In this document: piece by piece, positions 22,311 to 41,764 of the stretch
Layout of the letters: every line of letters begins with the position of its first letter
Numbering within the stretch: position 1 is the stretch's first letter
Assembly: GCA_041651055.1 (NCBI GenBank)
Contig: JBAZJW010000002.1
Coordinates: forward strand, 26,980 to 90,979
Reading direction: 5' to 3'
Length of the DNA stretch: 64,000 nucleotides
DNA from: Minisyncoccota bacterium
GTDB lineage: Bacteria > Patescibacteriota > Minisyncoccia > Phycocordibacterales > UBA5272
Made by a program: the position numbers and the translations under genes
Notes under the pieces: model-generated
The model's input: only the letters and a program-made list of their open reading frames with translations
Database searches by the model: none
What the model was told of the DNA's origin: nothing

Positions 22311-22613
22311 ATGAACCCAATACAGTCCGCCATCAAGGCGCTGTCCGAAAGCAAACACATAGTACGTGGTATAGAAGTGGGTGATACATTAGTAGCAATC
22401 GATGATCATGTGGTGGGTGGTGGTCCTGGGCAGCCAGAGGTTTTTGTGTCTGCTGGTGAACATGTGCGTGTCAAAGAAATACACGATGCTTCAGTTACTG
22501 TAAAGTTGGTAGATCGCACAGAATTGGAAAAAGAGTGGGGCAAGTATGAAGTCAACCGCGTTGATTTAGATCTGTCTGATCTTGACCATTATGTGGATGC
22601 CAAGGTATACTAA
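22311..22613 (+). CDS. Leader-family protein (MNPIQSAIKALSES)
   Basis: RBS aaggag; carries the shared N-terminal motif. Confidence 0.5.
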   Translation: MNPIQSAIKALSESKHIVRGIEVGDTLVAIDDHVVGGGPGQPEVFVSAGEHVRVKEIHDASVTVKLVDRTELEKEWGKYEVNRVDLDLSDLDHYVDAKVY

Positions 22614-22625
22614 AAGGAGTAATTC

Positions 22626-22886
22626 GTGCCAGAGCTAGATACACCCTTTACCGATGATAACCTTTACTCCAGGTATAGGAGTGAAGTCATTAGGATTATC
22701 AAAAACAGTGTCTTTCCGGTGCTTGAACAGTATTTAGAAGAGTTAGCTGAGGATTTGGCTGAAGACGGTGCAACAGAAGATTCAGAGTATGTGGAAGAAC
22801 TGCTTACGAACAACAGGTATCAATTAACCAGGGAGTACAAGAAGATACTAAAAACGTTGTTAGACTTTCCTGGGTTTGGAGAATAA
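22626..22886 (+). CDS. Hypothetical acidic protein
   Basis: GTG start with RBS aaggag. Confidence 0.4.
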   Translation: MPELDTPFTDDNLYSRYRSEVIRIIKNSVFPVLEQYLEELAEDLAEDGATEDSEYVEELLTNNRYQLTREYKKILKTLLDFPGFGE

Positions 22887-22889
22887 CGG

Positions 22890-23600
22890 TTGAAACGTGT
22901 GGCACAGTCTCCTGCTCTTTTTGATGCAGACGCTCGCTTAGATCCTGCTGTGCGTGAAGTCCTGTTGCAAATAGCTCAAGACATCTTAGATGCTTTAAAT
23001 GAAGAGGGCGTGCACGTACCCCCGAAATTCCTGGTGCTTACCGGATCCATGACCGGTTTTGACTACAAAGAGACATCAGACATAGACTTGCATATAGGCT
23101 ACGATCCGTTAGATTTTGAAGATCCTCAAGCCGTAAAGCTGCTGTTCCGTTACTATCAGAAAAGTTTCAATGCAGAGCCGTATGATTTACGAGATCACCC
23201 CATTGAGTTGTATTTTCAAGACGTGAACGAAGAGCACGTGTCGCCTGGCGTATATGATTTGATCAAGGATGCCTGGGTTAAATGGCCGGAGTCTCCTTCG
23301 TATATTAATGAAGAGGCTGTAGAAGAGTTTTATAATGGCACCACATATCTCATAGACAACTTCATCGTCGTTTATGAGCAGCAAAAGGGCAGCATGACCA
23401 TGAATGATAGGAAGCGCTTTCTTTCAGACGTAAAGGCGTTGAAAGACTTTATACGGGAAAAACGGTCAGAAGGTCTTCACTCTCCTGCGGGCGTGTATTC
23501 AGTACAAAATCTTGGATTCAAGCAGCTCCGTGAGCACTTAGACTTAGATAACTTGAATGCACTGGTGCATCGAGTGCAAGACGATATCTATGAGGCATGA
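22890..23600 (+). CDS. Minimal nucleotidyltransferase (Pol-beta superfamily) domain protein
   Basis: LVLTGSMTGFDYKETSDIDLHIGYD matches the hG[GS]x9-13 Dh[DE]h NTase signature. Confidence 0.5.
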   Translation: MKRVAQSPALFDADARLDPAVREVLLQIAQDILDALNEEGVHVPPKFLVLTGSMTGFDYKETSDIDLHIGYDPLDFEDPQAVKLLFRYYQKSFNAEPYDLRDHPIELYFQDVNEEHVSPGVYDLIKDAWVKWPESPSYINEEAVEEFYNGTTYLIDNFIVVYEQQKGSMTMNDRKRFLSDVKALKDFIREKRSEGLHSPAGVYSVQNLGFKQLREHLDLDNLNALVHRVQDDIYEA

Positions 23601-24343
23601 TGTTTGTATCAGCCAAATTGCGTAATGAGTTGAGGTCCGTAAAGGACCTGCTTACCATGTCTAACGCTGACAAGGGTTTTGATCTGGCTGTGATGGATCC
23701 AAACATGTTTCTTACCTGGTACAGAAAAAATGTTGGTGAAGCAAACTTTGAGGATGAACAGCAGTTCATTGAAAGTTTGTATGCAACGGATAAATCGGTG
23801 TTAGGTAACTATTTCGATGATGGAGATGTGCGGTACAGTTTGCTTAATGATCCTGATGCACCACCTTTTTTGTTTATGGACTTTGAAGAAGCTGTCTTTA
23901 ATAAATGGATGATTCATTTTACGGATAGTGCGTATAATGTGGCTTTGAAAGGCTTTAAATACGGCACACCAAATTTGGAGAGTTTGCCCTATACGAGACA
24001 TACTCCACAGAAATATAAAACGGGTGGGTATAACTTTGCGTATGATTTGGATGATCTGCACTATGCTTTTACGGGTAAAGGTACTAAGTATGGAAAAGAA
24101 GCGGTAATGTTTCAAGCTACTGGTATAAAAGTATATCATCACGGTGATGAAGAGCCGCAGGTAATATTTTGGGGTGAAACCGCCAGGAATTTTGTACCAA
24201 TCCTTGTCAATGGTGATACAGACGATTGGGCTGTTGGAGAAGACAAAGAAGGTTTTCCGGTATACCATCACGAAAGTTTAGATAAGGTCGTGGATTGGGT
24301 GGTAGCCAATTTCAATCAATACAAGGGAGTCTTAATAGTATGA
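23597..24343 (+). CDS. Hypothetical protein
   Basis: ORF overlapping the upstream stop. Confidence 0.5.
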   Translation: MMFVSAKLRNELRSVKDLLTMSNADKGFDLAVMDPNMFLTWYRKNVGEANFEDEQQFIESLYATDKSVLGNYFDDGDVRYSLLNDPDAPPFLFMDFEEAVFNKWMIHFTDSAYNVALKGFKYGTPNLESLPYTRHTPQKYKTGGYNFAYDLDDLHYAFTGKGTKYGKEAVMFQATGIKVYHHGDEEPQVIFWGETARNFVPILVNGDTDDWAVGEDKEGFPVYHHESLDKVVDWVVANFNQYKGVLIV

Positions 24344-24600
24344 ATTCTGTACATCAAGCTATTCGAGTTTTGTCCCGTACTTTGTTTTGGGTAACTGATA
24401 AGTATGGATTTTTCACCACTGCAGTAGACAGCCTGGTAGCTGATCGAATCGTCAAGAGATTTGGACTTAATAAGGATCATGATTTTCACCACGCAGATCG
24501 TTACGAAGGTAAGGGCATGGAAGTCATGAAAGATAAAGGGAGTTGCCGCGTGACCGCCTACAATGAAAAAGCCAAGAGACTCATAGAGGATGTACTGTGA
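24340..24600 (+). CDS. Leader-family protein (MNSVHQAIRVLSRT)
   Basis: ATG overlaps the upstream stop; carries the shared N-terminal motif. Confidence 0.45.
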   Translation: MNSVHQAIRVLSRTLFWVTDKYGFFTTAVDSLVADRIVKRFGLNKDHDFHHADRYEGKGMEVMKDKGSCRVTAYNEKAKRLIEDVL

Positions 24601-24657
24601 TGTAGGTGTTGTGCCCACATCGGGTATAATAAACGTAAACGATAAGAGGAGATTGTA

Positions 24658-25497: not shown

Positions 25498-25504
25498 GTG
25501 TGAC

Positions 25505-25730: not shown

Positions 25731-26051
25731 ATGAAGTCTATAGACAAAGCGGTGCAAGTCATTGGACAAGAGCGCAGACACAGCATGCCTGCTAATATAC
25801 CAAGTGGTTGGGACCAGGCTTGGCTGGCGGGGTTTTTGAAGGAAATAGAAGCGCACTATGATTCGGTGCAGGAGTTTCAAAGGAGCATAGATGCTGTGCT
25901 GCAAGAGTTAGACAGCAGTGATGAAAGACTTGGTGTTGGAGCGTATTTGAAAAGTCTTATGGCTGCAGCCAGCAAGTTTGAGGATGCATTGGAAACTGCA
26001 CACAATTTCTTGAACGTGGATCCAGAACACACTGGTATACCTATAGACTGA
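25731..26051 (+). CDS. Leader-family protein (MKSIDKAVQVIGQE)
   Basis: ATG immediately after the upstream stop. Confidence 0.45.
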   Translation: MKSIDKAVQVIGQERRHSMPANIPSGWDQAWLAGFLKEIEAHYDSVQEFQRSIDAVLQELDSSDERLGVGAYLKSLMAAASKFEDALETAHNFLNVDPEHTGIPID

Positions 26052-26059: not shown

Positions 26060-26308
26060 GTGGGTGCTTACCTTAACAAAGCAGTAAAGGTTTTGAGCGG
26101 TGTTCCTGCCATACTGTATTCTCACCCCGAGATTCGGGATTATTACAGAAAAAATGATGAAAAGGTGGTTACTGCTTGGGGAGCTTTATCTGGGCCTGCA
26201 CACGGCATGCGCATTTATGTACAAACAAGGAGCCCAGAACGCATAGATACCTGGAGTCATGAGAAAGGGTTTTGGCATATCGTAGACACACGTAAAGTGG
26301 ATGTGTAG
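26060..26308 (+). CDS. Leader-family protein (MGAYLNKAVKVLSGV)
   Basis: GTG start with RBS gaggtg. Confidence 0.45.
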   Translation: MGAYLNKAVKVLSGVPAILYSHPEIRDYYRKNDEKVVTAWGALSGPAHGMRIYVQTRSPERIDTWSHEKGFWHIVDTRKVDV

Positions 26309-26504: not shown

Positions 26505-27260
26505 ATGCTTTCTGAGTCACAAAAAGGTATCACCAAGGATGAGTTGATCCTCATCTATGAACTCATGTACAAGTGGGGTATGATACAATCTTATGAGCGT
26601 GAACATGGGTATTTACCAGATCATGTGCTGCGATATGCCACGAAGATAGAGTCTGATCTTAGGTTTCACATAAAGCAAGGATTAGAAGCACTCATAGAAG
26701 CATGCGAGGCGTGGATAGAATATCACACATTTGACCAAGATGGTTGGTATGTGGACATTTTAGAAATTGATTCATTGAAAGAACAGATCAAACACGCTAT
26801 GGCAACTTTGTTGATAGACAGGCACGATGTACTGAAGGTCATAAAAAAGCTGATACCTGTGTACTTAAATGGATATAATGAAAAAGACCTGTGGTCGATA
26901 GTGCATCAATTAGAAGATGAAATAAAAGCTATTCATAAAGAGTTTTTTTATGAACTTTCTGAAGATGAGTATAAACACTGGATGAATCACCCAGTAGTTA
27001 AATCGATAGTGCACATGAAAAATAGCTTACAAATACATACTGATGATTTAGGTGATTTAGTATCTGCTTTTAATAGAGGAGTGTCAACAGCACACCACCA
27101 CGGTCAATTAGGTGAGTATATTTTGAAAGACTCCGGTCCACAAATTTTTGATGATCTCTCTTCAGGCAAGTACACAGGACAGTGGGACAAAGACTTGGAA
27201 AAGATCTTAGGTAGGAAAGTGTCAACCTTAATCCTCGCTGCTATAAAGGAGCTGACCTGA
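26505..27260 (+). CDS. Hypothetical protein, paralog of the 30723 gene
   Basis: WIEYHTFDQDGW aligns with WVDFHTFEGSLEH; similar C-terminus ...LAAIKELT versus LAINVLGET. Confidence 0.5.
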   Translation: MLSESQKGITKDELILIYELMYKWGMIQSYEREHGYLPDHVLRYATKIESDLRFHIKQGLEALIEACEAWIEYHTFDQDGWYVDILEIDSLKEQIKHAMATLLIDRHDVLKVIKKLIPVYLNGYNEKDLWSIVHQLEDEIKAIHKEFFYELSEDEYKHWMNHPVVKSIVHMKNSLQIHTDDLGDLVSAFNRGVSTAHHHGQLGEYILKDSGPQIFDDLSSGKYTGQWDKDLEKILGRKVSTLILAAIKELT

Positions 27261-27262: not shown

Positions 27263-27496
27263 ATGGACATCGATGTCGTTTTGTTTGAAAATCTGGGTAA
27301 AAATGGAGATCTAGAGAGCCTGGAGATAAATTATTGCATTGGAAAGAGAGAGGCTACGCTATATTTAGACAAAGATGAAGTCGATGGTTTATATCGATTG
27401 CAGCAGTGTGATAAAATAGACGAGTTAGAAGATGTGCAAGTAAAAGATACTATTTATGAAGAAGTGTTGCACTACGTAGAAAACATGAAAGGGTAA
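27263..27496 (+). CDS. Hypothetical acidic protein
   Basis: ORF; its 3' end lies inside repeat A. Confidence 0.45.
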   Translation: MDIDVVLFENLGKNGDLESLEINYCIGKREATLYLDKDEVDGLYRLQQCDKIDELEDVQVKDTIYEEVLHYVENMKG

Positions 27497-27527
27497 AGAC
27501 ATGAACTGGTTGAAAAAAGCAGTGGGT
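27407..27527 (+). repeat. Direct repeat A, copy 1 (about 115 bp, near-identical to 28082-28195)
   Basis: gataaaatagacgagttagaagatgtgcaagtaaaagatactatttatgaagaagtgttg...catgaactggttgaaaaaagc. Confidence 0.8.
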
Positions 27528-28001
27528 GTATTGGGTGTGGATATGCACGATAAATTCAGACAGAACGTTGAAAGCGGTAAGTGGTTGATAATGAAAATAC
27601 CACTCTACGCTCGTCGTTTTCTGGATAACAAACTTGGTAAATTATTTCCATATTATGCTAGTGAACGTCCACAACTGCCTTCTGCTGGAAAACCAGTTAC
27701 ATCGTGGACCCTACCAAGTGGTTCTAGTGTTCCGTGTCTGGTATTTTTGCCAGGAGACGAAGACATAGCTATGCAATACTTAGATGAGGCCAAGAAATCC
27801 CGAACCCAAGAAACCGAAGAGGGTGCGATTGGGGCAGTTGATAGGGCAATTGCTGTATGGGAACAAAATGGTCCCTTTTTACTAAAAGAGATAACTAATG
27901 CTGGGGACACAAAAATAGTAGCACAGGAACTGCGCAAAGCGGGGTTTGAAATGCGTGCTCTTCCAATGTATGGCAGCCCTAGAGTGTGGTATAAAAGATG
28001 A
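27501..28001 (+). CDS. Leader-family protein (MNWLKKAVGVLGV)
   Basis: ORF carrying the shared N-terminal motif. Confidence 0.5.
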   Translation: MNWLKKAVGVLGVDMHDKFRQNVESGKWLIMKIPLYARRFLDNKLGKLFPYYASERPQLPSAGKPVTSWTLPSGSSVPCLVFLPGDEDIAMQYLDEAKKSRTQETEEGAIGAVDRAIAVWEQNGPFLLKEITNAGDTKIVAQELRKAGFEMRALPMYGSPRVWYKR

Positions 28002-28002
28002 T

Positions 28003-28092
28003 TATCAAGGCGCAAGAAGTCCTTCCAGTCAACGTGGCTATCACTGATACTACTCAGTTGCAAGACGTGTTTGAGAGCAGTGTGGTAAAATA
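28003..28092 (+). pseudogene. Truncated remnant of the N-terminus of the 28476 gene (MIIKAQEVLPVNVAITDTTQLQDVFESSVVK*)
   Basis: Contains repeat B copy 1; nucleotide-level match to 28486-28553. Confidence 0.5.
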
Positions 28093-28195
28093 GATGAGTT
28101 AGAAGATGTGCAAGTAAAAGATACTATTTATGAAGAAGTGTTGGCTTATACTGAAAACATGAAAGGTAAATTGACATGAACTGGTTGAAAAAAGC
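28082..28195 (+). repeat. Direct repeat A, copy 2
   Basis: Near-identical to 27407-27527. Confidence 0.8.
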
Positions 28196-28475
28196 CATTG
28201 AAGAAATGGACAAATATGCTGATTTGTTTGTGGTGTCATACGTTGTTAGAGATCCTGAGCGCGGAAATAGAAACAGTGGTGCTTACTTAGTGCGTGCCAA
28301 GTCTAAGCTGGACGCAATTCAAGTAGTAAAAAACATAGCAGAGGATTATTTTAGGGTTTCTGCCACACCGGCTGATAAATACTACCGAGATGATTATGAT
28401 AGCGTAGAAGAGGCTCTAGAGGGCAAGAAATTACCTGCAATGAATAAATACCTTCTCCTGTACAGTGGTACATAA
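28176..28475 (+). CDS. Leader-family protein (MNWLKKAIEEM), an alternative cassette
   Basis: Same first 7 codons as the 27501 gene, unrelated body. Confidence 0.5.
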   Translation: MNWLKKAIEEMDKYADLFVVSYVVRDPERGNRNSGAYLVRAKSKLDAIQVVKNIAEDYFRVSATPADKYYRDDYDSVEEALEGKKLPAMNKYLLLYSGT

Positions 28476-29949
28476 AATGAAGATTTCAGCGCAGGAAGTC
28501 CTTCCAGTCAATGTGGCTATCACTGATGTCACTCAGTTGCAAGACGTGTTTGAGCTGTCTTTAGATGAAGCCATGAATTTAGCTATGTCCAATACCCGCA
28601 ACGGTATCTTGAATACTGCGTGGTATGAAGGCATCTTGGCCAAGTTGGGTGAAATTGAACGCGATGCATTTACGCTAGGTTTGGCTTCGGCTGGTGTACA
28701 AGTCATCAACGAAGTAGAAGAGCTGCCCATACAAGCCAACGACGTAAAAGTGCAGGTCATAGACACTTCCACCAACAAAGTGATAGAAGAAACTACTGGT
28801 GACAACCAGGAAGAGCAAAAGTTCAAGGATTTGACAAATAAGTATCCTGACAAGAATAAGAATGTGGTGCAAGTCGTAGACAATACCACCAAAAAGGTGA
28901 TGAAGTCTAACGCCAGCCTTGGGTATAATGCCCTTCAAGAAAAAATACTTATAGCTACTGACAAGCTGTCTGTGCTGAAGCGGGCTGGTAAGTCCGTGTC
29001 TTTAGAAGAAGTAGATGTCATCCTGGGCGACCTACCTGGTTGGGCCGTGGAATGTGTACGTGATAGAGTAAAAGACGTAAAAAAAGACGTGCGCAAGAAC
29101 AAGAGACAGGTCCATAAGACTGACAGAGAAGAGTCTGATTACCAGAAAGATGTGAGGAAGATCATGCAAAAGCCGAACATAAAAGACGTAAAAGGTGGCA
29201 GAGATGACGGGTTGAGCGCCGGTACCCGCAATGCCTTGATGATCATTGAGAATGATAAGAAATTTTTGGACCTGGCACTTAGTATCATTGCAGATGGTGG
29301 TTGGGAAAGTGAATTGTTCAAGGCTTTTGATGATGTGGTGGGCGGCAATTTACCAGCGTATGCGCGCAGTAGTGTGGTGGACTGGAAATTCGTAGCAGAG
29401 TATCTAAGGAAAGAATGCTCCACATCTTTGTTTGAGGAGGATGCTTGTGATGTGAAGCGCATGGAACCAGGCAGGGACGAGTGGCACCACGGCGCTCTAG
29501 ACGTAGATGCTGATCATCTTGAGCAGGAAAAGCGCGAGCTAGAAGATATAGTGATGAAGCGTCAAGATGAACTACCTAATTGGAAGAAACTGCTTGATAA
29601 AATCAAGAGAGCACTGTCTATCTCTGAGGTACGTGAAGTGTGGGACGACGTAAAAGACACGGCTACTATAGCTGAAAGTGAGGCTTGTGACATGACTGCA
29701 AAGAGAGCGCAATTGGAAGAGGATCAAGAAGACTTTGATGAGGGTGAAGACTTGAAGGAGACTGACCCAGAGACTTGGATCGCTGAGAGTTACATCAATG
29801 GCAATTTGCAAGACATCAAGCATGAGTTGAAGAGCATGCAGCCTATGGAAGCCATTTCATTGGCCATAGCTGCCTATTACTACCTGTTGGACATGGATCG
29901 CAAAGAGGCCGGTGCCTACTTGCGCTGGCTCATGAGGACAGGCGCTTGA
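28476..29949 (+). CDS. Large acidic coiled-coil protein (candidate internal virion protein)
   Basis: ORF of about 490 aa; N-terminus MKISAQEVLPVNVAITD lies in repeat B copy 2. Confidence 0.55.
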
Positions 29950-30425
29950 TAGTACGTGCTTCACAAGTCTTGGGTGCTGGCAAGAGGTTTTTGCTATATG
30001 CACATCTTACTTTGACAGGCAGAGCACCCAAAGTGTTGAAGGTACTTAGTGAAGAGCAACGTGATGGATATGTAATCAGAAAAGAGATGTGGGACACAGC
30101 CGGTCTTGTGCCAGAGCCCATGGAGATGATTACGTGTTACACACCGTCTGGTGATTGGATAGGTGAGGAAAAGACAGCCAAATTTTTGGTAGAAGAGATG
30201 GGCATAGCTCCTGAACTGTCAGACCCAGATCATTCAGTGTGCAGCACAGGATTTTGTGCCAAAGAAAATAGATGGTACGGGTGGTCACACCGCGCCATCC
30301 ACGGATTTGGTGTAGGTGATAAGTTTGAAGAGTGGTACCCAGAAGGCGGAGTTGAAGGTAAAAAGATAGAAACACTAGAAGAGGCAAGGGCTGCTGCTAA
30401 AGCCTTTGCTGAATCAGTAAGCTGA
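29946..30425 (+). CDS. Hypothetical protein
   Basis: ORF. Confidence 0.5.
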   Translation: MIVRASQVLGAGKRFLLYAHLTLTGRAPKVLKVLSEEQRDGYVIRKEMWDTAGLVPEPMEMITCYTPSGDWIGEEKTAKFLVEEMGIAPELSDPDHSVCSTGFCAKENRWYGWSHRAIHGFGVGDKFEEWYPEGGVEGKKIETLEEARAAAKAFAESVS

Positions 30426-30718: not shown

Positions 30719-30722
30719 TATG

Positions 30723-31514
30723 ATGGTATTGGGCGCATACGGTGATCCTATAAATCAACAACAGTTTGTTTCTTTGTGTGAGCGTGCAGACGAGTTGCAT
30801 GCTAAGCTGGGTTACGCTTATGTCATCAAAAGAAAGACTGGGTGGTTGTCAGATTCAGCTATGTCTTATGTTGGTAAGATGGAGCAAGAATTAGATTTAA
30901 CATTAAACCAGATCTTTGACTTGGTGAAGGAATCATTAGATATGTGGGTGGATTTTCATACATTTGAAGGATCGTTAGAACACATACTGGGTGGTGTCGC
31001 GTCTGGATTAGATGCTGAATACTGGTACAATCAATTTACTGAGTGGGTGGGGTCACAACCAGCACTGGACAGACTCATTTATTCAGCCACCAAGCACACA
31101 GAATCACATGCCACGTGGGCGTATGAATCTTTTGATCATGCCTTTAATAAAGATAAAAATACATTCATCAAGATTTGGAAGCGGGTATACCCGTATTTTA
31201 TGAAAAGCTACCCAAGCCTAAACAAAGCTTTGGTCAATACACAAAACGTGTTATCAGAAATGCAGTCTCCTCCCGCAGATTTGATGGATAAGGCTGCTTT
31301 ATACCAAAAGTTTATGAATCTGGTACATTCTACTGGCCCAATGTTAGAGCACATACTTGAGGATGATAGCATGGCCAGGAAAGTGATGGATGATTTAGCA
31401 CACAATCGTTATATAAACGATACTGAGTGGAAGAAGGAAGTAGAAAATAAGTTGGGGAGTAAAGTGGCTACTAGGTATCTGGTGTTGGCAATAAACGTGT
31501 TGGGTGAAACATGA
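30723..31514 (+). CDS. Hypothetical protein, paralog of the 26505 gene
   Basis: See the 26505 entry. Confidence 0.5.
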   Translation: MVLGAYGDPINQQQFVSLCERADELHAKLGYAYVIKRKTGWLSDSAMSYVGKMEQELDLTLNQIFDLVKESLDMWVDFHTFEGSLEHILGGVASGLDAEYWYNQFTEWVGSQPALDRLIYSATKHTESHATWAYESFDHAFNKDKNTFIKIWKRVYPYFMKSYPSLNKALVNTQNVLSEMQSPPADLMDKAALYQKFMNLVHSTGPMLEHILEDDSMARKVMDDLAHNRYINDTEWKKEVENKLGSKVATRYLVLAINVLGET

Positions 31515-32117: not shown

Positions 32118-33389
32118 ATGAAAGTACAAGCCCAAGAAGTCATAGACCAGCCGATGTTTCCGCTCGAAGAGGAGCACCCTCTTGAAGATGTGGAGGGCGT
32201 CTCTGTTGAGCCCAACGAAATCACTGAAGACAGTGCACTGACTATAGCCAAGACTTATTGGATGATGGGCTACAACTGGTTAGAGATAGAGATGCTGCTA
32301 AAGGATCGGCACTACCCAGAGTCTATGATATCCAAGGCCGTGAAAGCTGCACAAGCGTATGCCAAAGAGATGTTGTCCAACGGACCGTTTGCTGGTGCTG
32401 TTAATGGGCAATACGTCAAACTCAAGAATGGTATGTGGGGTGTGGCTGCGCAGCTTACACCCAAACAGGCTGTGTTGACTCTTGAAGATGGCACCAAGCT
32501 AAAGACCGAGATCGAGCACATAGACGTAGAAGCTACCAAACTGTTGGCTGAATCATTCAAGTTACGTAAGCAGGCCGAACTCATCCTTAATGCCATCCCC
32601 AAAGAGTACGTGATACCGGAGATGGAGGGGCAACCTGACATGGAGGTTGACCCAGACATACAAGAGTCTTACAAAAGTCTTGTTCAAGAGCGCGCCCCCG
32701 CTGGCTGGTCTGAGATCTCGCCTGAAATCGGTGAGGCTGAACCGGTACATGCTGTGTTGCATAATGTCATCAACAACCTGGAGGGACTGCGGGCGCTGAA
32801 AGATGAATTGCAAAAGAGCATCAAGAAAGTCAAGGACGAGCAGTTGATGCCGTTGCAGGAGCAGTTCAAGGCCCTGGCGGGCGACGAACAGCAAGAGTTG
32901 AGAAACGCTTTCATGATCGTGGAGCAAATGGAAGACGGTTTGAGTGAAATAGATAAGACGATCTTTAGGGACTATGAAGGTGAGTTGGTGGGCTTCCAGA
33001 ACAAGATAGTGGAAAATCCGATGCCGCCCACCGTGGCTGATGAGTTAGATGCCCTAAAGAAAATCATTGCAGAAAATCATAAAAAGATAGCTCCTGGAAT
33101 CTTTGCAGCTTTAGAGCAATTTATGGAGGCCAACACCAAGATTGAGCGCGAACTGCAAAAGACGTTTGCTAAGTACCCGTACCGCAAGCGTCCGAAGAAG
33201 GGGCAGTTGGTGGAGAAGGTAACTGGTTGGTTCAAGGGCTTGTGGAAGTCTTTGTCAAAGACCATCACTGGTCTTTACGAGACGGTACTCCCCGAGGCAG
33301 AAGAGGCCACGGAAGCCGTGCAAGAGATGAACAGGCAGCTCGATAGCTACCTGAAGACTGCTGCTGTCAAGAAAATCGTGAAAGGGTAA
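32118..33389 (+). CDS. Hypothetical helical or coiled-coil protein
   Basis: ORF of 423 aa. Confidence 0.5.
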   Translation: MKVQAQEVIDQPMFPLEEEHPLEDVEGVSVEPNEITEDSALTIAKTYWMMGYNWLEIEMLLKDRHYPESMISKAVKAAQAYAKEMLSNGPFAGAVNGQYVKLKNGMWGVAAQLTPKQAVLTLEDGTKLKTEIEHIDVEATKLLAESFKLRKQAELILNAIPKEYVIPEMEGQPDMEVDPDIQESYKSLVQERAPAGWSEISPEIGEAEPVHAVLHNVINNLEGLRALKDELQKSIKKVKDEQLMPLQEQFKALAGDEQQELRNAFMIVEQMEDGLSEIDKTIFRDYEGELVGFQNKIVENPMPPTVADELDALKKIIAENHKKIAPGIFAALEQFMEANTKIERELQKTFAKYPYRKRPKKGQLVEKVTGWFKGLWKSLSKTITGLYETVLPEAEEATEAVQEMNRQLDSYLKTAAVKKIVKG

Positions 33390-33393: not shown

Positions 33394-33930
33394 ATGAAGT
33401 CACTAGTAAAAGCAATAAGAGTGTTATCAGGGACACAAACACTAAAACAGTGGATTGGTAATACTACTTCTGAAAAATATAGTATCCCTGCTGGTGAAGC
33501 ACCGTCTTCCGCGCCCAAAGATCCGAAAGATGCTGCATATAAATTGATGACTAAAGATGAAATTTTAAAAACATTTGATGGAGATGCACAAGGCAACCTC
33601 GATTTGAATTACGATAGGTGGATCGCTGCAGATGATTCTGCTAATGCACCCAGTGTCATATACCAAACTCAGGGCAGAGATAAAACCGGTGCTTTGAACA
33701 AGCGTGCTAGTAGAGACAGCAAAGAGTGGGAGAAGTGGGAGTTTTTGAAAGAAGTGATGGGTGTTGAAGCCCTGTTATATGAAGTGTTGATAGGTATGAG
33801 CAACAAAGAAGCTGAGGATATGATTGAGTGGATAGCTCGTATGCATGACATCCACGATCCAATACTGGGTGATGAACCAGAAGAAGATGAGGCTGAGGAA
33901 GAGGAAGACACCGAAGACGAGGAAGAGTAA
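33394..33930 (+). CDS. Leader-family protein (MKSLVKAIRVLSGT) with poly-acidic C-terminus
   Basis: ORF; junction sequence gaaagggtaaagacATGAA shared with 27486. Confidence 0.5.
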   Translation: MKSLVKAIRVLSGTQTLKQWIGNTTSEKYSIPAGEAPSSAPKDPKDAAYKLMTKDEILKTFDGDAQGNLDLNYDRWIAADDSANAPSVIYQTQGRDKTGALNKRASRDSKEWEKWEFLKEVMGVEALLYEVLIGMSNKEAEDMIEWIARMHDIHDPILGDEPEEDEAEEEEDTEDEEE

Positions 33931-34424: not shown

Positions 34425-34695
34425 ATCCTTGAGTGCTCCTATAAAATACAAGATTTATACTTTAGACGAAGACGGTAAGTTGCGCTTTAAGAAAAAGGGT
34501 AACGGCTTGTTTTATGTGCCTGAGGTGAACAAGTCAGTGGTGGACATAGGAGATCATATCACACTTGATTTAGGTGATACACAGATATTTATAGAGTTAG
34601 CATCATTCAAGGCGGTGTGCGCTGCTTTTATGAACAAGAAAGAGACGAAGAAAAACATAGTACAATTGAAAGTCGTAAATGGAGGAAAGACATGA
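34408..34695 (+). CDS. Hypothetical protein
   Basis: ORF; the start is uncertain. Confidence 0.4.
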   Translation: MSWGGRSLSAPIKYKIYTLDEDGKLRFKKKGNGLFYVPEVNKSVVDIGDHITLDLGDTQIFIELASFKAVCAAFMNKKETKKNIVQLKVVNGGKT

Positions 34696-35330
34696 ATTTT
34701 ATAGCGAAAGCTGTTGATGTATTAGCTGGTTCGAAAGAGAAGCAATTGATCAACAAAATTGTCAAGAAAATTGATGGTGAATTTGCCAGGTATCTGTGGT
34801 CTGATTTGTGGACTCACTTTGATGAGGAACAAATAGAGGAGTATGCTGACAAATTTGGCATTAAATACACTGGTAACCCCTCTGAAACTATTGATATGAT
34901 TAGTGGTAAAACTTCTGACGATGAAATAAAACAAAACCTAAAGGAACTGTTGACTAACATCTATGATTTAGATATGTTGGTGGCACTGTGGGGAGATGTG
35001 GGTGGTGATGTGGAACAGTATGAATCACAAACTGTGATAAACTTAAAAAAGGAACTGGAAGACATTGGTGTTCCTGTTAAAAATGTCTATTTAAGTGATG
35101 ATGCAAGTGCAAGGTTTTCCAATTCTTTTTACATAATAATAGATACTGTAGCTGATACAGAAACTTTATCAAAAATAAAAGATTTTGTGCGCAACTTAGA
35201 TGGAAATGCAAAATTTAAGGAAATCGTGTACAACAATAAACCTGCTAAAGAGGGTGAATATTACCGTTTAGTGTGTGATATTAATAAGAGTGCAATGAAA
35301 AAATTGAAAATGCGAGGAGGTCTTCTATGA
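34692..35330 (+). CDS. Leader-family protein (MNFIAKAVDVLAGS)
   Basis: RBS ggagga. Confidence 0.5.
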   Translation: MNFIAKAVDVLAGSKEKQLINKIVKKIDGEFARYLWSDLWTHFDEEQIEEYADKFGIKYTGNPSETIDMISGKTSDDEIKQNLKELLTNIYDLDMLVALWGDVGGDVEQYESQTVINLKKELEDIGVPVKNVYLSDDASARFSNSFYIIIDTVADTETLSKIKDFVRNLDGNAKFKEIVYNNKPAKEGEYYRLVCDINKSAMKKLKMRGGLL

Positions 35331-35590
35331 AGCTGTATTACGATGTCATCTCGAAGATGTACTCTTTGGAGACTGAGCAGGGACCTGAATTCCTGGGTCC
35401 CTTTGCTCATACCCTGCTCAAGTTGAAGCAGGCTGGTTTGACTGAAGACCAGTCACGTGAAGCCGTGCTCAAAGCCATGTTTGGCTACGGTCGAGCGATT
35501 TGCTTAGACGCTGTTATAGCTGATAATTTAGTGGGTGGGTTGAAAGCCGTACATAATCATACGTACGGAAAGGACAAGGCTGATGAATAA
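35327..35590 (+). CDS. Hypothetical protein
   Basis: ORF; the C-terminal 20 codons are repeated at 36296-36356. Confidence 0.45.
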   Translation: MKLYYDVISKMYSLETEQGPEFLGPFAHTLLKLKQAGLTEDQSREAVLKAMFGYGRAICLDAVIADNLVGGLKAVHNHTYGKDKADE

Positions 35591-36278
35591 CTATCTGTTC
35601 CGTGCAATCGCTCAGTTGAAGGAGTATGTAAGTCCAAGTGTAAAGACACAAGTACCTTTTACTATATCAGAAGAACATCCGCTACCAGTACAAGTGTTAC
35701 CTAAGGATGAAGAATGCATACTAAAATTTATAAATAAAGAAGAGTGCGAAGGTGAGTATGTTACGTCAAGAAGAGACAGCATAGGAACACTAGAATTGTT
35801 GGTTGATGGGTGGCACGTAGCACAATGGTACCGTCGTAAGATACTTACTGTACCACCAGACACCGAATTAGAGGGTTATCAAAAGAAAGTGGTGGATTTT
35901 TTGAAGGAAGTAGGGGGACTACGTGTAAAGGACTGGAGAAGCGTTAAAGAAGAAAGCCCCGGCCAGCAAATACCATATTATATGGGCATGCAGTTTGATA
36001 GATCGCTAAATAAACGCAGTGCACAGAACATAATGAACAGCATACTGCGCAATTTGCCGGATGGGTTTATGGTGTATAAGGGCAGAGTCGATTACGGACC
36101 GTGGGATGGAAAAGTATATACTTTATACGATAAGATACTTGCTTCTGTTATTGGTGTACTTGTTCGTAAAGATAGTAAGCATAAAATAAAGGAATTTATG
36201 AATGCAGTTAACTCTATGGATGGTGTAACTGAAGCATACTTACTTAGAGACATAGATCACAACATGCTTGATGTGTGA
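35583..36278 (+). CDS. Leader-variant protein (MNNYLFRAIAQLKEY)
   Basis: ATGAATAA overlap with the upstream stop. Confidence 0.5.
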   Translation: MNNYLFRAIAQLKEYVSPSVKTQVPFTISEEHPLPVQVLPKDEECILKFINKEECEGEYVTSRRDSIGTLELLVDGWHVAQWYRRKILTVPPDTELEGYQKKVVDFLKEVGGLRVKDWRSVKEESPGQQIPYYMGMQFDRSLNKRSAQNIMNSILRNLPDGFMVYKGRVDYGPWDGKVYTLYDKILASVIGVLVRKDSKHKIKEFMNAVNSMDGVTEAYLLRDIDHNMLDV

Positions 36279-36873: not shown

Positions 36874-38751
36874 GTGGCAGACAAGGATAAGAAAAAGCCC
36901 ACCAACAGCAGCGCTATCATAGTTAAGGCCAGTGATTTTAGGGACAACCCTGACGAAGGCAAGATTGAAGGCCAAAAGGATATGGTTTATGGTCGATACC
37001 GAAGCATAGCCAGTGTCAATCGCCGTGGATCTTATACTGGCGCTCCCACTTCTACCTCGCAGCAATCCACTGCGATGGTGCCTATTTACTACGATTACCG
37101 GTTTTCTACACCAGACAAGTACTACTTTCCCAAAGACCGGTTCAATGCCAACTCTACGTGGCGTGATATCTATCGACGCGACGCCACCATCGGTATCGCC
37201 ACTGACATGTATTCGGAGTTGCCGTGGTCCGACTTTGATATAGAAGCTGTAGACGACCCTAAGATACAGCAGTGTTATGAAGATATGTTTACCGATTTGG
37301 CTTTGGCCCCACAAATGCCTTTGTTTTCAAAGGACTTTCTAATACACGGAGAGTTCGTAGGGCACTCCCTGTTCAATGAAACTAAGGGGTACTGGGACCG
37401 GATCATCTCCCACAACCCAGATTATGTGAAAGTCATGGGTGTGGGTTTAGCTTCAGCACAGCCATTATGCTGGTTGCGTCCTACTCCTGACTTTGTGCGT
37501 CTTATGAACACTCCAGATCCTCGGGTACGCAAGTACTTGAATACTATCCCTGGTGAAGTGCTGCGCTCGTTTAAGATGGGCAAGGAAGTGTACCTTGAGC
37601 CCATGAATACTACGTACATGCCTCGCAAAAACACTTCACAAGAGGTGCGCGGTATATCTGTTTATACTCGTTTGTTCCGCATTAACATGTACGAAGATTT
37701 CGTGATGAATGCTTCACTGTCCATAGCCCAACGCAATGCGGCTCCATTGCGCTTGTTCAAGATGGGTGATGTCTCCAGACCTGATGGTTGGATGCCGGGT
37801 GCAGAAGACATACAAGCATTTACCAATTTGTTGGCTACATCGGAGACAGATCCGTTTGCGGCGCTAATCACTCACCCGTACATCACCGTAGACTATGTGG
37901 GTGTAAGCGATAAAGTACTGCTGATTTCCCGAGAGTGGGAGTTTATTGAGCGTGTGAAGCTGCTAGCATTTGGTGTGTCAAAAGCATTTCTGGTCGGGGA
38001 GACATCTTTTGCATCGAGCGTAGCAGGTTTGCAGACTTTGCTTGAGCGCCTGGCTAACTTTAGGCTGATGTTTGAAGTCAATCTGATGCGTGACAAACTG
38101 GCTAAGCCAGTAGCCGAGATGAACGATTTTTATGAGCATTCCCAGGCGGAGCTGGACCATAGAGTGCGGGTCAAGAACAAAGCTGAGCGCAGGTTGGTGC
38201 TACCCACTTTCAAGTGGAAGAAAAGCCTTGAACCGACTCAAGATCAATCCTTGATGAACACTTGGCGCGACTACAAAGAGCGTGGTTTGATCTCTGATAA
38301 GACTTATTTGGCTGGTGGTGGTGTAGATATAGAGATTGAAAGACGCAATCTCATTGAAGAGATAGAGTACAAAGAGAAGATGATCGAGGAAGGCAAGATT
38401 CAGCCTCCTGGCATGGAAGGTGAAGAGGGCATGGGTGGTGGTCTTGGCGGTGAAGAGCCGGGGTTGCCTCCGCCTCCGGGCGCACACAGGATGCGTGGCG
38501 TTCATCCAAACTTTCCACGTCGATTGCCGTCTATGAGGCACTGGGCGAAAAAGTTGATGGATGACTACACCCCAGGAGATGAGTTAGATTCAAGTAGGAT
38601 GAGTGTAGACCAAGCCATGGATAGATTTAGCAAGTTGAGTCCAAGGGCTAGGAAACAGTTGCTGCACGAGATCAAAAACAAGGTGCCGTCACAAGAGCCA
38701 TACATGCTGAATGGTGCCGTGCGGACGGCAAGGAAGAAGCCACATGAATAA
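36874..38751 (+). CDS. Large virion-type protein, possibly the portal (size and position only)
   Basis: GTG start with RBS; 625 aa; Gly-rich C-terminal segment; no diagnostic motif recognised. Confidence 0.45.
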   Translation: MADKDKKKPTNSSAIIVKASDFRDNPDEGKIEGQKDMVYGRYRSIASVNRRGSYTGAPTSTSQQSTAMVPIYYDYRFSTPDKYYFPKDRFNANSTWRDIYRRDATIGIATDMYSELPWSDFDIEAVDDPKIQQCYEDMFTDLALAPQMPLFSKDFLIHGEFVGHSLFNETKGYWDRIISHNPDYVKVMGVGLASAQPLCWLRPTPDFVRLMNTPDPRVRKYLNTIPGEVLRSFKMGKEVYLEPMNTTYMPRKNTSQEVRGISVYTRLFRINMYEDFVMNASLSIAQRNAAPLRLFKMGDVSRPDGWMPGAEDIQAFTNLLATSETDPFAALITHPYITVDYVGVSDKVLLISREWEFIERVKLLAFGVSKAFLVGETSFASSVAGLQTLLERLANFRLMFEVNLMRDKLAKPVAEMNDFYEHSQAELDHRVRVKNKAERRLVLPTFKWKKSLEPTQDQSLMNTWRDYKERGLISDKTYLAGGGVDIEIERRNLIEEIEYKEKMIEEGKIQPPGMEGEEGMGGGLGGEEPGLPPPPGAHRMRGVHPNFPRRLPSMRHWAKKLMDDYTPGDELDSSRMSVDQAMDRFSKLSPRARKQLLHEIKNKVPSQEPYMLNGAVRTARKKPHE

Positions 38752-39187
38752 ATACCTTCTACGTGCAATAGCACAGTTGAAAAAGTATTTGGAACCGGAG
38801 GTTAGAACACTTCGGACCAGCCCCGCAATTGAAAAAATAGAAAGTCCCAGAAAGACCATTGAGTATTTTACAGACAGCATCAGTTCTGGGGAAGGAAGCC
38901 TAGATATGGACTCTTCTGAATTTGAAGTGGTTTTTACCGGAGGGTGGTCAAAAGAAGACGATGAGATGATATCAAACATGATACAATCTTCTGGTATTGG
39001 TTGGGAAGAATATCACATAACAAACGCTAGTACGATCTATGTTAATAACAGAAAGAATGCTAACAAAATATTTGAACTAGTTTATGAACAATATAAGGAA
39101 CGGGGATATGACGAATTCATATTGCAAACTGCTTCAGGAGTACTTATTAAAACCAAAGATTCTATCGGACCAAGACAAATAGAGTAA
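38744..39187 (+). CDS. Leader-variant protein (MNKYLLRAIAQLKKY)
   Basis: ATGAATAA overlap with the upstream stop; leader paralogous to the 35583 gene. Confidence 0.5.
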   Translation: MNKYLLRAIAQLKKYLEPEVRTLRTSPAIEKIESPRKTIEYFTDSISSGEGSLDMDSSEFEVVFTGGWSKEDDEMISNMIQSSGIGWEEYHITNASTIYVNNRKNANKIFELVYEQYKERGYDEFILQTASGVLIKTKDSIGPRQIE

Positions 39188-39189
39188 AA

Positions 39190-40374
39190 ATGCTTTCTTA
39201 TGATCAACACTTGGTGGCTGAAGTAGAGCGTCTGGCGGGCGGTGCTCAAATACACGATGTAAGGGACGTGATAGCTACTTACAAAAATTGGTTTTCCGTC
39301 CTAGAACAGGTACCCGATCACGAAGAAGAGGCATTAAAGCGCATAAATGAGTATGAGGATTTATTGCGAGCGTACGTGCAAATGAGAAAATCAGGACAAT
39401 ATCCTAGCATTTACAAAATGAAGGAAAAGTTTCTATCAGAAGTGAAAGGTGCAATGAACATGAAAGGTGCAATAAATAAGGCGATTGAAGTATTGGCTGA
39501 GAAAACCAAAGTGTGGACGTGGGCCGATGATGATATGGAGTGGCGTAGTGTATCAATAAATGCATATGAAAACATACCAGCACGTGATGTACTGGCATTG
39601 GCTGACTCTGCTGGACAGGTAAATTACCCTAGCGTGTTTGTGAAAGAGAAAATAGTAAACGGCGCTCGCGTAATACGCTTTAAATTCGAGTATAATAATA
39701 TTGGATTTACGGTAATTGGTGTACCTACGAGGAGCGAAGCAGAGAAGGCAGTAAAAGGTGCTGGGTGGGGTTATTATTTAGAAGGTTATGAATCTGAACA
39801 GGAAGCCGAAGAAAACAGAGAACAAAGGAAAAAAGACATCAGTGAAAGTAAAATGCTTCGTACTCTTAGAACTACCAAAGACTGGGATTTTGTAGAGAGT
39901 TTGATTGACCAGTATGCAAACAGTTTCGAAGCGTATAGTAACCTATCTTTTAATGAAAACATACCACAGGAAATACTACTTGAATGGGTTGATAGTGTAG
40001 ATGATAGTAATCTTGGACCAGTATTGGGTATGCTCCCGTTTGATGAAGAAAGTTTTGAAGAACTAATAAATGAGTACAAAGATGATGGAAAAATATTAGC
40101 AAGAATCGCAAGCAATCCGTATTTACCAAGTTATGTGGCATTAGAATTATTCAATAAATACTTCAATAGCCGAGATGTGGTATATGCATTGTTGAATGAG
40201 GAGCCTGCATTTACTTTGGAACAATTTGAAAAGATAGTTAATAGATACAAGAATGACAAGTGGATGATGAATAGCGTGTATTTTACTTTAAAGGATCATT
40301 ACAAGAAATCTCCGGAAAGAGACGATATTATCGAAAGAACGGAAAAACTACTCAAAAAATGGTTCCGTATATGA
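39190..40374 (+). CDS. Hypothetical protein; contains an internal leader motif (MNMKGAINKAIEVLAE at codon ~85), so it may be two genes or start internally
   Basis: The segment after the motif is paralogous to the 40436 gene (KAIEVLA..T.VW.W...MEW). Confidence 0.45.
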   Translation: MLSYDQHLVAEVERLAGGAQIHDVRDVIATYKNWFSVLEQVPDHEEEALKRINEYEDLLRAYVQMRKSGQYPSIYKMKEKFLSEVKGAMNMKGAINKAIEVLAEKTKVWTWADDDMEWRSVSINAYENIPARDVLALADSAGQVNYPSVFVKEKIVNGARVIRFKFEYNNIGFTVIGVPTRSEAEKAVKGAGWGYYLEGYESEQEAEENREQRKKDISESKMLRTLRTTKDWDFVESLIDQYANSFEAYSNLSFNENIPQEILLEWVDSVDDSNLGPVLGMLPFDEESFEELINEYKDDGKILARIASNPYLPSYVALELFNKYFNSRDVVYALLNEEPAFTLEQFEKIVNRYKNDKWMMNSVYFTLKDHYKKSPERDDIIERTEKLLKKWFRI

Positions 40375-40435
40375 CCATCTACTGACGATTGAAAGGGTGC
40401 TTGCGTAGAGTGCATAGGAAGGGGTTGGCGGCAAA

Positions 40436-40837
40436 ATGAGTAACATTGCAAAAGCTATTGAAGTACTGGCTGGCGAGACCAGGGTGTGGAATTGGAATGA
40501 GATCGGGATGGAGTGGACATCAGCCTTGGTTGGTGTCTCTCCTACGGATTCTGGTGACAAGATTAGTATTATGTATGATGTAGCTATTGGTAATTTAGAC
40601 GAGAGTTTGATTGATTGGAGCAATAAAGATGGAATGTATGGTTTAGAGAACACAGACTTCTGGGGTTTGCCTGTTAAAGATGATAAGGTTGGCAATTTTA
40701 GGGTGTTACACACTCCATGTCAAGATGGTCATGTAGATCAAGCATTGTTGGTAGTGGGGCCTAAATCTGCCAAAGAAGCACAACAGGCTGCTATGAAGGC
40801 AGGGTACGGTGAATGGTTTGAAGATTTGCAAGAATAG
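40436..40837 (+). CDS. Leader-family protein (MSNIAKAIEVLAGE)
   Basis: ORF. Confidence 0.5.
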   Translation: MSNIAKAIEVLAGETRVWNWNEIGMEWTSALVGVSPTDSGDKISIMYDVAIGNLDESLIDWSNKDGMYGLENTDFWGLPVKDDKVGNFRVLHTPCQDGHVDQALLVVGPKSAKEAQQAAMKAGYGEWFEDLQE

Positions 40838-41333
40838 GCGTCCCTCTACTATTGAGGCAGAACGGTTGGCAGAAACATCTGATGACGGTGTGGCATACAT
40901 AGTAACCTACAACGATAACTATCCAAAGCGTGAATTGGACAGACGTGAAGTAAAACCAAGAAAGCAAATGCAGTCTTTAGAGGATGTGGGTAGGTCGTGG
41001 TTGCTGGATCCCGTGGTGCCTGAACACGGACAGTTTCCCAAAGAAAACAAGAGGAGGTCTTCAATGATAGTTAGAGCAAGGGACGTGTGGACTGATGAGG
41101 AAGTAGATATTTCTAGACTCATTAAGTTTGCACAAGCTTGGGAACAAATGGGCAGCACAGTATCTAGACAGTTGATAGCTATCATGGAGAGTCCTGAGGC
41201 TGAGGTAAATCCACGTGCTATCTCTGAAGCTAAAGACTTTATTGGTGGTTTTCACGAAGAGATAGATGCTGCAATCGCTGAGTTTGAAAATACCATGGAA
41301 CATGCCAGCAGGCCCGGTGATGATGAGGAATGA
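40809..41333 (+). CDS. Hypothetical protein
   Basis: ORF; start uncertain. Confidence 0.4.
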   Translation: MNGLKICKNRRPSTIEAERLAETSDDGVAYIVTYNDNYPKRELDRREVKPRKQMQSLEDVGRSWLLDPVVPEHGQFPKENKRRSSMIVRARDVWTDEEVDISRLIKFAQAWEQMGSTVSRQLIAIMESPEAEVNPRAISEAKDFIGGFHEEIDAAIAEFENTMEHASRPGDDEE

Positions 41334-41344
41334 GGGCAGATGCT

Positions 41345-41764
41345 ATGAAAAAGATGATAGTAAAAGCTATTGACATGCTATCTGTAAATGGTAGTTCTCA
41401 AGAAATAACTGAAGAAGACATAGCCAAGGTGGTTGGGTCCAAACCAGATCACTTTGAAACTGGGATGCATGATAATTCTGTGTATGCAGCTTATTTCAAC
41501 ACCTCTATGAAGCGTTCCCCTAAAGGAATTCATGCCGATGGTGAGTATGGTGAAATATTTATAGATAAAAATGCTCATGTTTATGTTGGTATCTTCAATC
41601 CAGAGTATGATGAGAGTGATGAATACGATGAAGACGAAGATCTTCCAGAACAGCAATTTAATTTTTTCCATGGTACATATCCTGGTACCACAGTACACAG
41701 TTTAGCTGAACTAGAAGAGGTTTGGAACAGCGACGATTGGCACCAGGGCGATCTCACATTGTGA
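41345..41764 (+). CDS. Leader-family protein (MKKMIVKAIDMLSV)
   Basis: ORF; an alternative start at 41330 is possible. Confidence 0.5.
   Translation: MKKMIVKAIDMLSVNGSSQEITEEDIAKVVGSKPDHFETGMHDNSVYAAYFNTSMKRSPKGIHADGEYGEIFIDKNAHVYVGIFNPEYDESDEYDEDEDLPEQQFNFFHGTYPGTTVHSLAELEEVWNSDDWHQGDLTL

Follow-up and report, generated by a model that had tools for sequence, protein, structure and literature searches.

Why should about twenty phage genes with mostly unrelated products share one short peptide? The question is raised by a 64-kb stretch (64,000 nucleotides of contig JBAZJW010000002.1, hereafter the window) from the ~184-kb genome of an uncultivated phage, in which we analyzed the 130 genes of the plus strand. 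The peptide, here called the leader, is about 10 residues long and amphipathic, stands mostly at gene N-termini, and follows the consensus M-x(1-5)-h-x-[KRQ]-A-[IVM]-x-[VI]-[LI]-[SAG]-[GE], with its basic Lys or Arg at residues 4 to 8 counted from Met in the great majority of copies. We found it at 17 plus-strand gene starts, at two in-frame internal positions of fused open reading frames (ORFs), on a single remnant of a duplication, and at the C-termini of two paralogues, all of them within 21.0 to 41.8 kb and 60.0 to 61.0 kb of the window (Table 1). The reading that we favor, and to which we give an even chance, is that the leader acts as a capsid-targeting docking helix, functionally equivalent but not homologous to the capsid-targeting sequence (CTS) of phage T4.

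The original prediction, made from the letters of the window, had listed about 15 leader-bearing genes. All listed starts and N-terminal sequences were present, and the set has now grown to about 20, with further members contributed by a position matrix that drew on the leaders already listed and by a later scan that added the gene at 21066-22298 (genes are named below by their start positions). The TTG start of this gene sits just past the upstream stop codon and is backed by an identical 410-residue database protein (P0221). One position had to be corrected: the internal copy placed at 39449 has its actual start Met at 39460 (or 39454), inside ORF 39190-40374. The placement of all members between the terminase gene and the protease/capsid block was right for most of them; the copies at 60001 and 60584 lie 3' of the capsid gene, and members flank the portal gene.

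The enrichment of the motif at N-termini was assessed with a non-circular position-specific scoring matrix (PSSM), trained solely on six leaders from related phages (contigs L046, L047 and L008) and scanned over the 130 genes. It matched 12 of 910 N-terminal positions but only 10 of 17,893 internal ones (Fisher p = 6e-11), and three of these ten internal matches were two fused copies and a C-terminal copy of the leader. All 12 N-terminal matches fell within the 38 genes at 20.7 to 41.8 kb and 59.6 to 61.0 kb, and none within the other 92 genes (p = 9e-8). We thus conclude that the motif is not a general property of N-termini; the concern that it might be generic to all N-termini of the genome proved unfounded within the window. 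No comparable leader matches were found on the minus strand of the window. The leader-like N-terminus of gene 4464 (MTLVAKAIEFAK) was rejected as a chance likeness, being the start of that protein's own HD_4 domain (profile position 1 corresponds to residue 7).

Bodies behind the leader

The leader proteins are 82 to 490 residues long overall, most of them between 82 and 231 residues. The description of their bodies as mostly unrelated held in an all-against-all BLASTP comparison, which gave nothing below E = 0.28, with the reservation that, on direct reading, the pairs 39460/40436 and 35583/38744 have ~20 to 30 N-terminal residues in common. Scanning the leader proteins against Pfam and PHROG left every body an orphan apart from one Tad6 body and weak zincin-like matches.

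The Tad6 body (gene 29946) matched PF25188 over residues 38 to 159 (score 134.5 bits, curated cut-off 27; E = 3.9e-39; positions 5 to 145 of the 145-position profile). All 218 homologues of this protein carry PF25188, and many begin directly at the domain; the N-terminal extension of 29946 is missing from homologues elsewhere. In the AlphaFold2 (AF2) model, the fold starts at residue 29 with pLDDT above 90, and residues 1 to 24 form two helices with pLDDT of 45 to 56; a Foldseek search of this model against the PDB gave no significant match. Tad6 proteins bind ThsB, the TIR protein of type I Thoeris (PMC13402655), and by family membership the product of 29946 is predicted to be a Thoeris inhibitor. 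The contigs of other Tad6 homologues (L003-L007) showed no multi-gene leader pattern. In the homologue P0097, an N-terminal "KAIEVL" was rejected as a leader, being the first strand of the Tad6 domain. Other Tad6 proteins (P0002, P0003, P0005-P0007 and P0013) have varied N-terminal extensions of their own, 30 to 130 residues long, some of them common to homologues (MKPNIIARLITEDIT..., MD..L.RKLI..A), and other phages may place other tags on the same Tad6 cargo. A link of the P0002/P0003 extensions to the window protein 58898 was dropped (BLASTP E = 55).

The HExxH domain of 21066 matched hundreds of proteins from about residue 22 onward, including giants of 2103 to 3182 residues that carry topoisomerase IB or lethal-factor-like (ATLF) domains, and in the AF2 model residues 1 to 14 form a helix outside the fold with pLDDT below 50. 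In a leader gene of a related contig (L046 9506, MNFLRKAILHLTS), a DUF5661 domain occupies residues 21 to 92, beyond the leader. The leader thus lies outside three independently defined domains, Tad6, zincin-like and DUF5661.

The same body may also occur with and without the leader. The body of 33394 has an orthologue in L046_7982 (47% identity, residues 46 to 159 against 18 to 131), which starts MLRRSQRQ... and has no leader. Residues 43 to 420 of the backbone protein 32118 align to residues 8 to 381 of its orthologue in contig L001, which lacks the leader-bearing extension; the L046 orthologue starts MKIIASEELQ.

Nor is the leader bound to the terminus. ORF 59662-60507 corresponds to two separate genes in contig L047, the second of which begins MKHLVKAMEVIGA and is 50% identical to residues 115 to 210. 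ORF 39190-40374 looks like an ~88-residue gene fused to a leader gene paralogous to 40436, and in P0222, homologous to 21066 at 50% identity, a homologue of 24340 is attached in frame behind the zincin-like part and keeps its leader internally, which brings the in-frame fusions with an internal leader to three. A signal peptide or an N-degron would not tolerate internal or C-terminal positions, whereas a docking motif would; since such copies exist, a docking motif fits better than a signal that requires a terminus. None of the 17 leaders resembled a Sec/Tat or lipoprotein signal, the hydrophobic core being too short (the longest uncharged hydrophobic run was 2 to 5 residues in 16 of the 17 leaders, with a maximum of 7) and a Cys lipobox being absent.

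Leaders in related phages

Homologues of the portal protein led to about 100 related contigs, of which eleven neighborhoods were compared. Leader genes were present in the closest relatives, with portals 56 to 67% identical to that of the window, and they occupy places that correspond to those in the window: ahead of the portal, behind it and behind the capsid genes (Table 1). The more distant contigs L001/L002/L011, L012 and L048-L052 (portal 47 to 59%) had no leader genes and a compact terminase-portal interval of about five genes; the 1045-residue backbone protein of L001, an orthologue of 28477, nonetheless starts MKISAQDVFG. This protein gave no match to annotated phages. As to the proviso that homologues in related phages might lack the motif, the closest relatives have it, the terminase-portal interval of the more distant ones does not, and one orthologous body occurs without it.

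The leader genes 8709, 9506 and 11902 of L046 and 439 of L008 have no homologue in the window, while the structural genes of these phages are 45 to 74% identical to those of the window, which points to a tag that is kept while its cargo turns over between related phages. In the window, the leader set is enlarged from about five to about twenty genes. As an N-terminal tag, KAIEVL[SA]G is not widespread, since a scan of IMG/VR for DNA encoding it returned 32 loci and all but one match lay inside large proteins. A scan of a genome collection with the portal profile found no relative.

Table 1. Positions of leader copies and head genes in the window, followed by leader genes of related contigs
Feature	Position	Strand	Product (residues)	Leader or motif	Remarks
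Large terminase	18783..20699	+			tblastn match to annotated large terminases of jumbo phages
Leader gene, zincin-like HExxH body	21066..22298	+	410	MSYLIRKAILCLQAKY	TTG start; independent PSSM match
Leader gene, orphan body	22311..22613	+	100	MNPIQSAIKALSE	no Pfam/PHROG match
Leader gene	24340..24600	+	86	MNSVHQAIRVLSR	
Leader gene	25731..26051	+	106	MKSIDKAVQVIGQ	
Leader gene	26060..26308	+	82	MGAYLNKAVKVLSG	GTG start
C-terminal leader-like motif	27228..27257	+		LILAAIKELT, then stop	end of 26505-27260, paralogue of 30720-31514
Leader gene	27501..28001	+	166	MNWLKKAVGVLGV	conserved 19-nucleotide junction ATGAAAGGGTAAAGACATG upstream
Remnant ORF	27998..28093	+	31	MIIKAQEVLPVNVAITDTTQLQDVFESSVVK (MIIKAQEVLPV...)	duplicated 5' end of 28477 plus duplicated 3' end of 27263-27496
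Leader gene	28176..28475	+	99	MNWLKKAIEEM	5' end duplicates that of 27501, body differs
Conserved backbone gene, leader variant	28477..29949	+	490	MKISAQEVLPV	
Leader gene, Tad6 body (PF25188)	29946..30425	+	159	MIVRASQVLGAG	TTG start overlapping upstream stop
C-terminal leader-like motif	31479..31511	+		LVLAINVLGET, then stop	end of gene 30720-31514
Backbone gene	32118..33389	+	423	MKVQAQEVI	begins an N-terminal extension of ~35-42 residues
Leader gene	33394..33930	+	178	MKSLVKAIRVLSG	junction GTGAAAGGGTAAAGACATG upstream
Leader gene	34692..35330	+	212	MNFIAKAVDVLAG	
Variant leader gene	35583..36278	+	231	MNNYLFRAIAQLKEY	directly 5' of portal
Portal protein	36874..38751	+			phrog_16240, E=1e-79; 99 homologues
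Variant leader gene	38744..39187	+	147	MNKYLLRAIAQLKKY	directly 3' of portal
ORF with internal in-frame leader	39190..40374	+	394	MKGAINKAIEVLAE	leader from 39460
Leader gene, orphan body	40436..40837	+	133	MSNIAKAIEVLAGE	sole database match is an identical protein
Leader gene	41345..41764	+	139	MKKMIVKAIDMLS	
Head block	54625..58864	+			phrog_18299, phrog_2522; prohead protease 54625-55485, putative scaffold 55556-56959, 231-residue conserved protein, major capsid protein 57731-58864
ORF with internal in-frame leader	59662..60507	+	281	MIVKAINIVSV	leader from 60001
Leader gene	60584..60988	+	134	MIVKAIEVLSI	3' of capsid gene; junction GTGAAAGGTGAAAGCCATG upstream
Orthologue of 28477	L046/L047: 3995			MIIKAQDVLS	portal 62-67% identical
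Leader gene	L046: 8709			MNYILQAMRVLGE	before portal
Leader gene	L046: 9506			MNFLRKAILHLTS	before portal
Leader gene	L046: 11902			MTKLIIKAVDILGV	directly after portal
Leader gene	L047: 22733			MKHLVKAMEVIGA	after capsid genes
Leader gene	L008/L009			MSSLVKATDVLKEE	before portal; portal 56% identical

A proposed capsid address tag and its alternatives

In the capsid-targeting reading, a chain would lead from binding to a head component through encapsidation, possible trimming and ejection to early action. The leader genes, co-directional with the head genes, would probably be co-expressed with them. By sequence and models, each product ends N-terminally in an exposed, flexible helix, ~10 residues long, that combines a hydrophobic face (h, A, I/V, V/I, L) with a Ser/Gly cap. 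This helix would bind one common receptor of the prohead core (for example scaffold, protease, portal or the 490-residue backbone protein), trapping the body in the shell. The prohead protease may then trim the leader, and the cargo would exit with the DNA at the next infection, acting ahead of phage gene expression. Among the predicted cargo are the Tad6-family Thoeris inhibitor and the zincin-like peptidase; an anti-defense gene in a late module would make most sense if its protein were prepackaged, like IPI* of T4 (PMC3012670). The earlier idea of a modular targeting peptide with a diverse payload is borne out as far as modularity and neighborhood go: the leader stands outside the three domains, is kept on different bodies in relatives and is present or absent on the same orthologous body, is confined to the head-gene neighborhood in the window, and precedes one body of a known anti-Thoeris family.

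For encapsidation in T4, the ten N-terminal residues of IPIII suffice, and CTS-bearing proteins vary widely among related phages, some of them being anti-restriction proteins (PMC9026906, PMC3012670). The leader resembles the CTS of IPI, IPII, IPIII and Alt as an N-terminal peptide of 10 to 20 residues common to unrelated proteins that are encoded with or near head genes, with a cargo set that varies between related phages and includes anti-defense functions (T4 IPI* against GmrSD) (PMC9026906, PMC3012670, PMC5694885). In contrast to the handful of tagged genes in T4, there are ~17 to 20 in the 64 kb studied here. The T4 tag is cut after Glu, whereas the leader has no consistent Glu site behind it and also occurs internally and at C-termini. 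That the genes lie in the region where T4 internal proteins sit, as the original prediction had argued, carries no weight in a phage that is not T4-like. Among solved structures, the capsid protein matched only gp27 of phage G (6WKK, E = 1.7e-28), and the head module is thus, by homology, not T4-like. The prohead protease showed no detectable sequence relation to T4 gp21, nor any Pfam or PDB sequence match, whether searched as a single sequence or as a six-sequence profile.

The proposed likeness to T4 CTS and to encapsulin cargo peptides failed at the sequence level, where the leader matrix found no similarity to either peptide. By its sequence, the head lineage, the unclassified protease and the lack of a consistent cleavage site, the system falls outside the T4 CTS family. 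Encapsulins dock diverse cargo inside an HK97-fold shell by a short linear peptide of variable, usually C-terminal, position. They have no portal, terminase or DNA, whereas portal and terminase are present here, and the leader is mostly N-terminal and follows another consensus. In MuF polymorphic toxins and SPP1 gp7-type proteins, a constant N-terminal head-association domain of a few hundred residues precedes variable C-terminal effectors. The layout of a constant N-terminal part and a variable body is alike, but the constant part is a folded domain there and a 10-residue peptide here, and Pfam scans found no MuF/SPP1 gp7-type domain in any leader protein.

In the giant phages phiKZ, 201phi2-1 and SPN3US, the N-terminal regions of head-internal proteins are likewise thought to be prohead-targeting, and the SPN3US paralogues gp53 and gp54 have an identical 15-residue N-terminus with the remainder diverged (PMC5694885). 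Most of these propeptides exceed 100 residues; they occur in paralogous families and end at defined A/S-x-E cleavage sites, whereas the leader comprises ~10 residues on unrelated bodies. A further parallel is provided by the polyvalent proteins of phages and conjugative elements, sets of conflict effectors with the zincin-like peptidase as a hub domain, for which packaging into the head and injection along with the DNA are predicted (PMC5512222). Homologues of the zincin-like body of 21066 occur within proteins of up to 3182 residues, and three in-frame fusions of leader genes are known; the difference is that polyvalent proteins join two to fifteen effector domains in a chain, whereas here mostly separate small proteins, each tagged, carry at most one recognizable domain. 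A broader proposal, which we hold tentatively and at somewhat less than an even chance, is that, in a lineage of large uncultivated phages, a position-tolerant, non-T4 docking peptide of ~10 residues marks out an "injectome": ~20 effectors that are encoded separately, exchanged quickly and preloaded into the capsid, with the Thoeris inhibitor and the zincin-like peptidase among them. Such a set would be the unfused equivalent of polyvalent proteins. In Virus Rctr197k (contig L045), a distant relative and the nearest phage with annotation, the terminase-portal interval consists of one 2175-residue ORF (6140-12667) with a GNAT-like segment, which may be the polyvalent-type counterpart of the many small leader genes.

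Several points weigh against capsid targeting. Encapsidation of the leader proteins and a common receptor in the head are predictions, and the restriction to the head module holds for 64 kb of a ~184-kb genome. Most bodies are orphans that offer no clue to function; only one belongs to a family with a demonstrated anti-defense role, and its start codon is TTG. The Pfam matches of 21066 are weak and below threshold (Peptidase_Mx1, E = 0.011), and Foldseek matches of its fold to M1/M61 peptidases in the PDB are not significant (E of at least 0.075). What follows the leader varies between members (LSE, LAGE, LAE and LKE, but also LSR, LSGVP and LGVD) and shows no consistent cleavage motif, and a Glu follows 1 to 15 residues past the leader in many members but not in all. 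Finally, the leader matrix scores the T4 IPIII CTS at -5.5 bits, and with a head lineage that is phage G gp27-like and a protease without a gp21 match, the analogy to T4 is purely functional.

A common binding partner could also lie outside the capsid. The leader would then dock, for example, to a chaperone or adaptor of the phage, to the adaptor of a host protease (for which it would serve as a degron) or to one host hub protein attacked by all these effectors, and the proteins would act, unpackaged, in the producing cell. The modularity evidence fits any common partner equally well, the internal and C-terminal copies show only that the leader functions as a linear motif, and no cleavage motif is evident. 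On the sequence data we give this explanation a modest chance, well below that of capsid targeting. Against it, the leader genes alternate with those for terminase, portal and capsid along a single strand without an excess of promoter- or terminator-like sites (whose counts at 20 to 40 kb were not above those of shuffled sequence), 28477, the likely ancestral carrier, belongs to the conserved backbone of the head module, and the leader genes of relatives adjoin portal and capsid genes. An anti-Thoeris protein made late would, moreover, presumably come too late unless carried into the next cell. Even if the tag binds a non-head partner, it would be an unusually clear case of one linear motif tying ~20 unrelated phage proteins to a single partner.

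A second alternative, in which the leader is an amphipathic helix for peripheral attachment to a membrane, either at a membrane-bound site of head assembly or at envelope targets, has in our view little probability. The helical hydrophobic moment of the leaders is indeed high (0.55, against 0.39 for other N-termini of the window; p = 4.5e-5), and their net charge is mostly zero to positive. However, Ala, Ile/Val, Val and Leu make up only a small hydrophobic face, the aromatics typical of membrane-targeting helices are absent from it, an acidic residue often stands in the middle of the motif (KAIEVL, KAVDVL), and the helix has only ~10 residues with a low mean hydrophobicity of 0.12.

The shared 5' ends could, third, be a DNA cassette, combining a translation-initiation region with a recombination site, in which the peptide has no function. 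The locus does show traces of such traffic. A 19-nucleotide junction (RTGAAAGGKKAAAGMCATG) precedes the leaders of 27501, 33394 and 60584 (3 matches, 0.43 expected) and is identical or near-identical 5' of three to four members. The segment 27402-28075 is tandemly duplicated. This event copied the 5' end of 28477 and placed that of the MNWLKK gene before another body; the direct repeats D1-D3 match at 27402-27492 and 28076-28166 (90%) and at 27986-28075 and 28465-28554 (84%). An 18-nucleotide tandem duplication (GTGAAAGGTGCAATGAAC / ATGAAAGGTGCAATAAAT) at 39436-39471 lies exactly at the fusion junction in ORF 39190-40374. The shared junction and the tandem duplication of 27402-28075 indicate that 5' gene ends with the leader undergo duplication and recombination. 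The codons, in contrast, argue against a cassette without a functional peptide. Among 16 leader copies, the codon of the invariant Ala had an entropy of 0 at its first and second positions and of 1.92 bits at its third, two hydrophobic codons kept only the middle T invariant, and the mean entropies of the core codons were 1.07, 0.64 and 1.62 bits at positions 1, 2 and 3. Since third positions vary close to randomly while the first and second positions of Ala are fixed, selection acts on the peptide and not on the DNA, in agreement with what synonymous codon differences had suggested at the outset. Upstream DNA is, furthermore, not common to most members, and the peptide is kept in phages with portals only 56 to 67% identical and is retained when internal or C-terminal. 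We therefore consider the cassette explanation very improbable.

The notion of one old paralogous family, with diverged bodies and the N-terminus as the last conserved piece of a common fold, can draw on the clear paralogue pairs 39460/40436, 35583/38744 and 27501/28176 and on the tandem duplication active in the region, but it is scarcely credible for proteins of 82 to 490 residues in which three unrelated domains occur without the leader in many other organisms, structure models place the leader outside the fold, and one orthologous body has no leader.

Returning to the capsid-targeting reading, the tag would probably go back to the start of the conserved backbone protein encoded next to the terminase (MKISAQEVL / MIIKAQDVLS), 28477 being the likely ancestral carrier as judged from its orthologues. 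As 5' gene ends were duplicated and recombined, the tag would have spread and yielded a fast-changing, lineage-specific payload. If the leader is such a tag, peptide-directed protein packaging would have an origin separate from that in T4, in a phage of another head lineage, and could support a much larger payload of ~20 genes. The presence of an anti-Thoeris family member in a late head module would predict that inhibitors of signaling systems are delivered premade with the DNA. The tagged orphan genes would form a candidate list of early-acting effectors, with the leader as a handle for finding new anti-defense proteins, and tag and receptor would be engineerable for protein delivery as a portable means of loading non-T4 capsids.

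Some head proteins carry leader-like segments of their own. The protease N-terminus M-x-F-[FY]-K-T-A is conserved throughout the clade, phages without leader genes included, as is an internal protease segment, L-K-A-[VI]-A-K-V-Y-N-I-S, which is loosely leader-like; scaffold N-termini (F-[ILV]-[KR]-K-A-Q) resemble the MIIKAQ variant of the leader. The conserved protease segments and scaffold N-termini could be native ligands of the same receptor as the leader.

Neighboring genes

The order protease, scaffold, 231-residue protein and capsid protein was kept in all relatives. A DUF192 domain protein (31511-31996 in the window) is a conserved backbone gene of the terminase-portal interval in every relative; its counterparts (7636-8496 in L001, 5643-6395 in L046, and in L048-L052) are often fused into proteins of 370 to 650 residues. 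Many portal genes of the clade (P0124, P0146, P0155 and others; in L047, 10001-13081) harbor an intein that includes a LAGLIDADG homing endonuclease (Pfam PF14890, PF14528 and PF05203), and none is found in the portal gene of the window.

Upstream of the terminase gene, the stretch 16466-17830 comprises ~1.3 kb with only short ORFs, in a region (16 to 18 kb) of raised G+C content (0.49), and matched no Rfam family or tRNA. Genes for tRNA-Arg(TCT) and tRNA-Asn(GTT) adjoin each other at 2784-2938. Directly after the last leader gene lies a TnpB-type gene (61024-62262) with OrfB_IS605, Cas12f1-like TNB and helix-turn-helix domains, followed by a G+C-rich, ORF-poor region at 62.9 to 64 kb that could hold its guide RNA; L001 has a 421-residue gene after the portal in a position similar to that of the TnpB-type gene. 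The phage contig is filed at NCBI under a metagenome-assembled genome of Candidatus Paceibacterota, which may reflect mis-binning or give a hint of the host.

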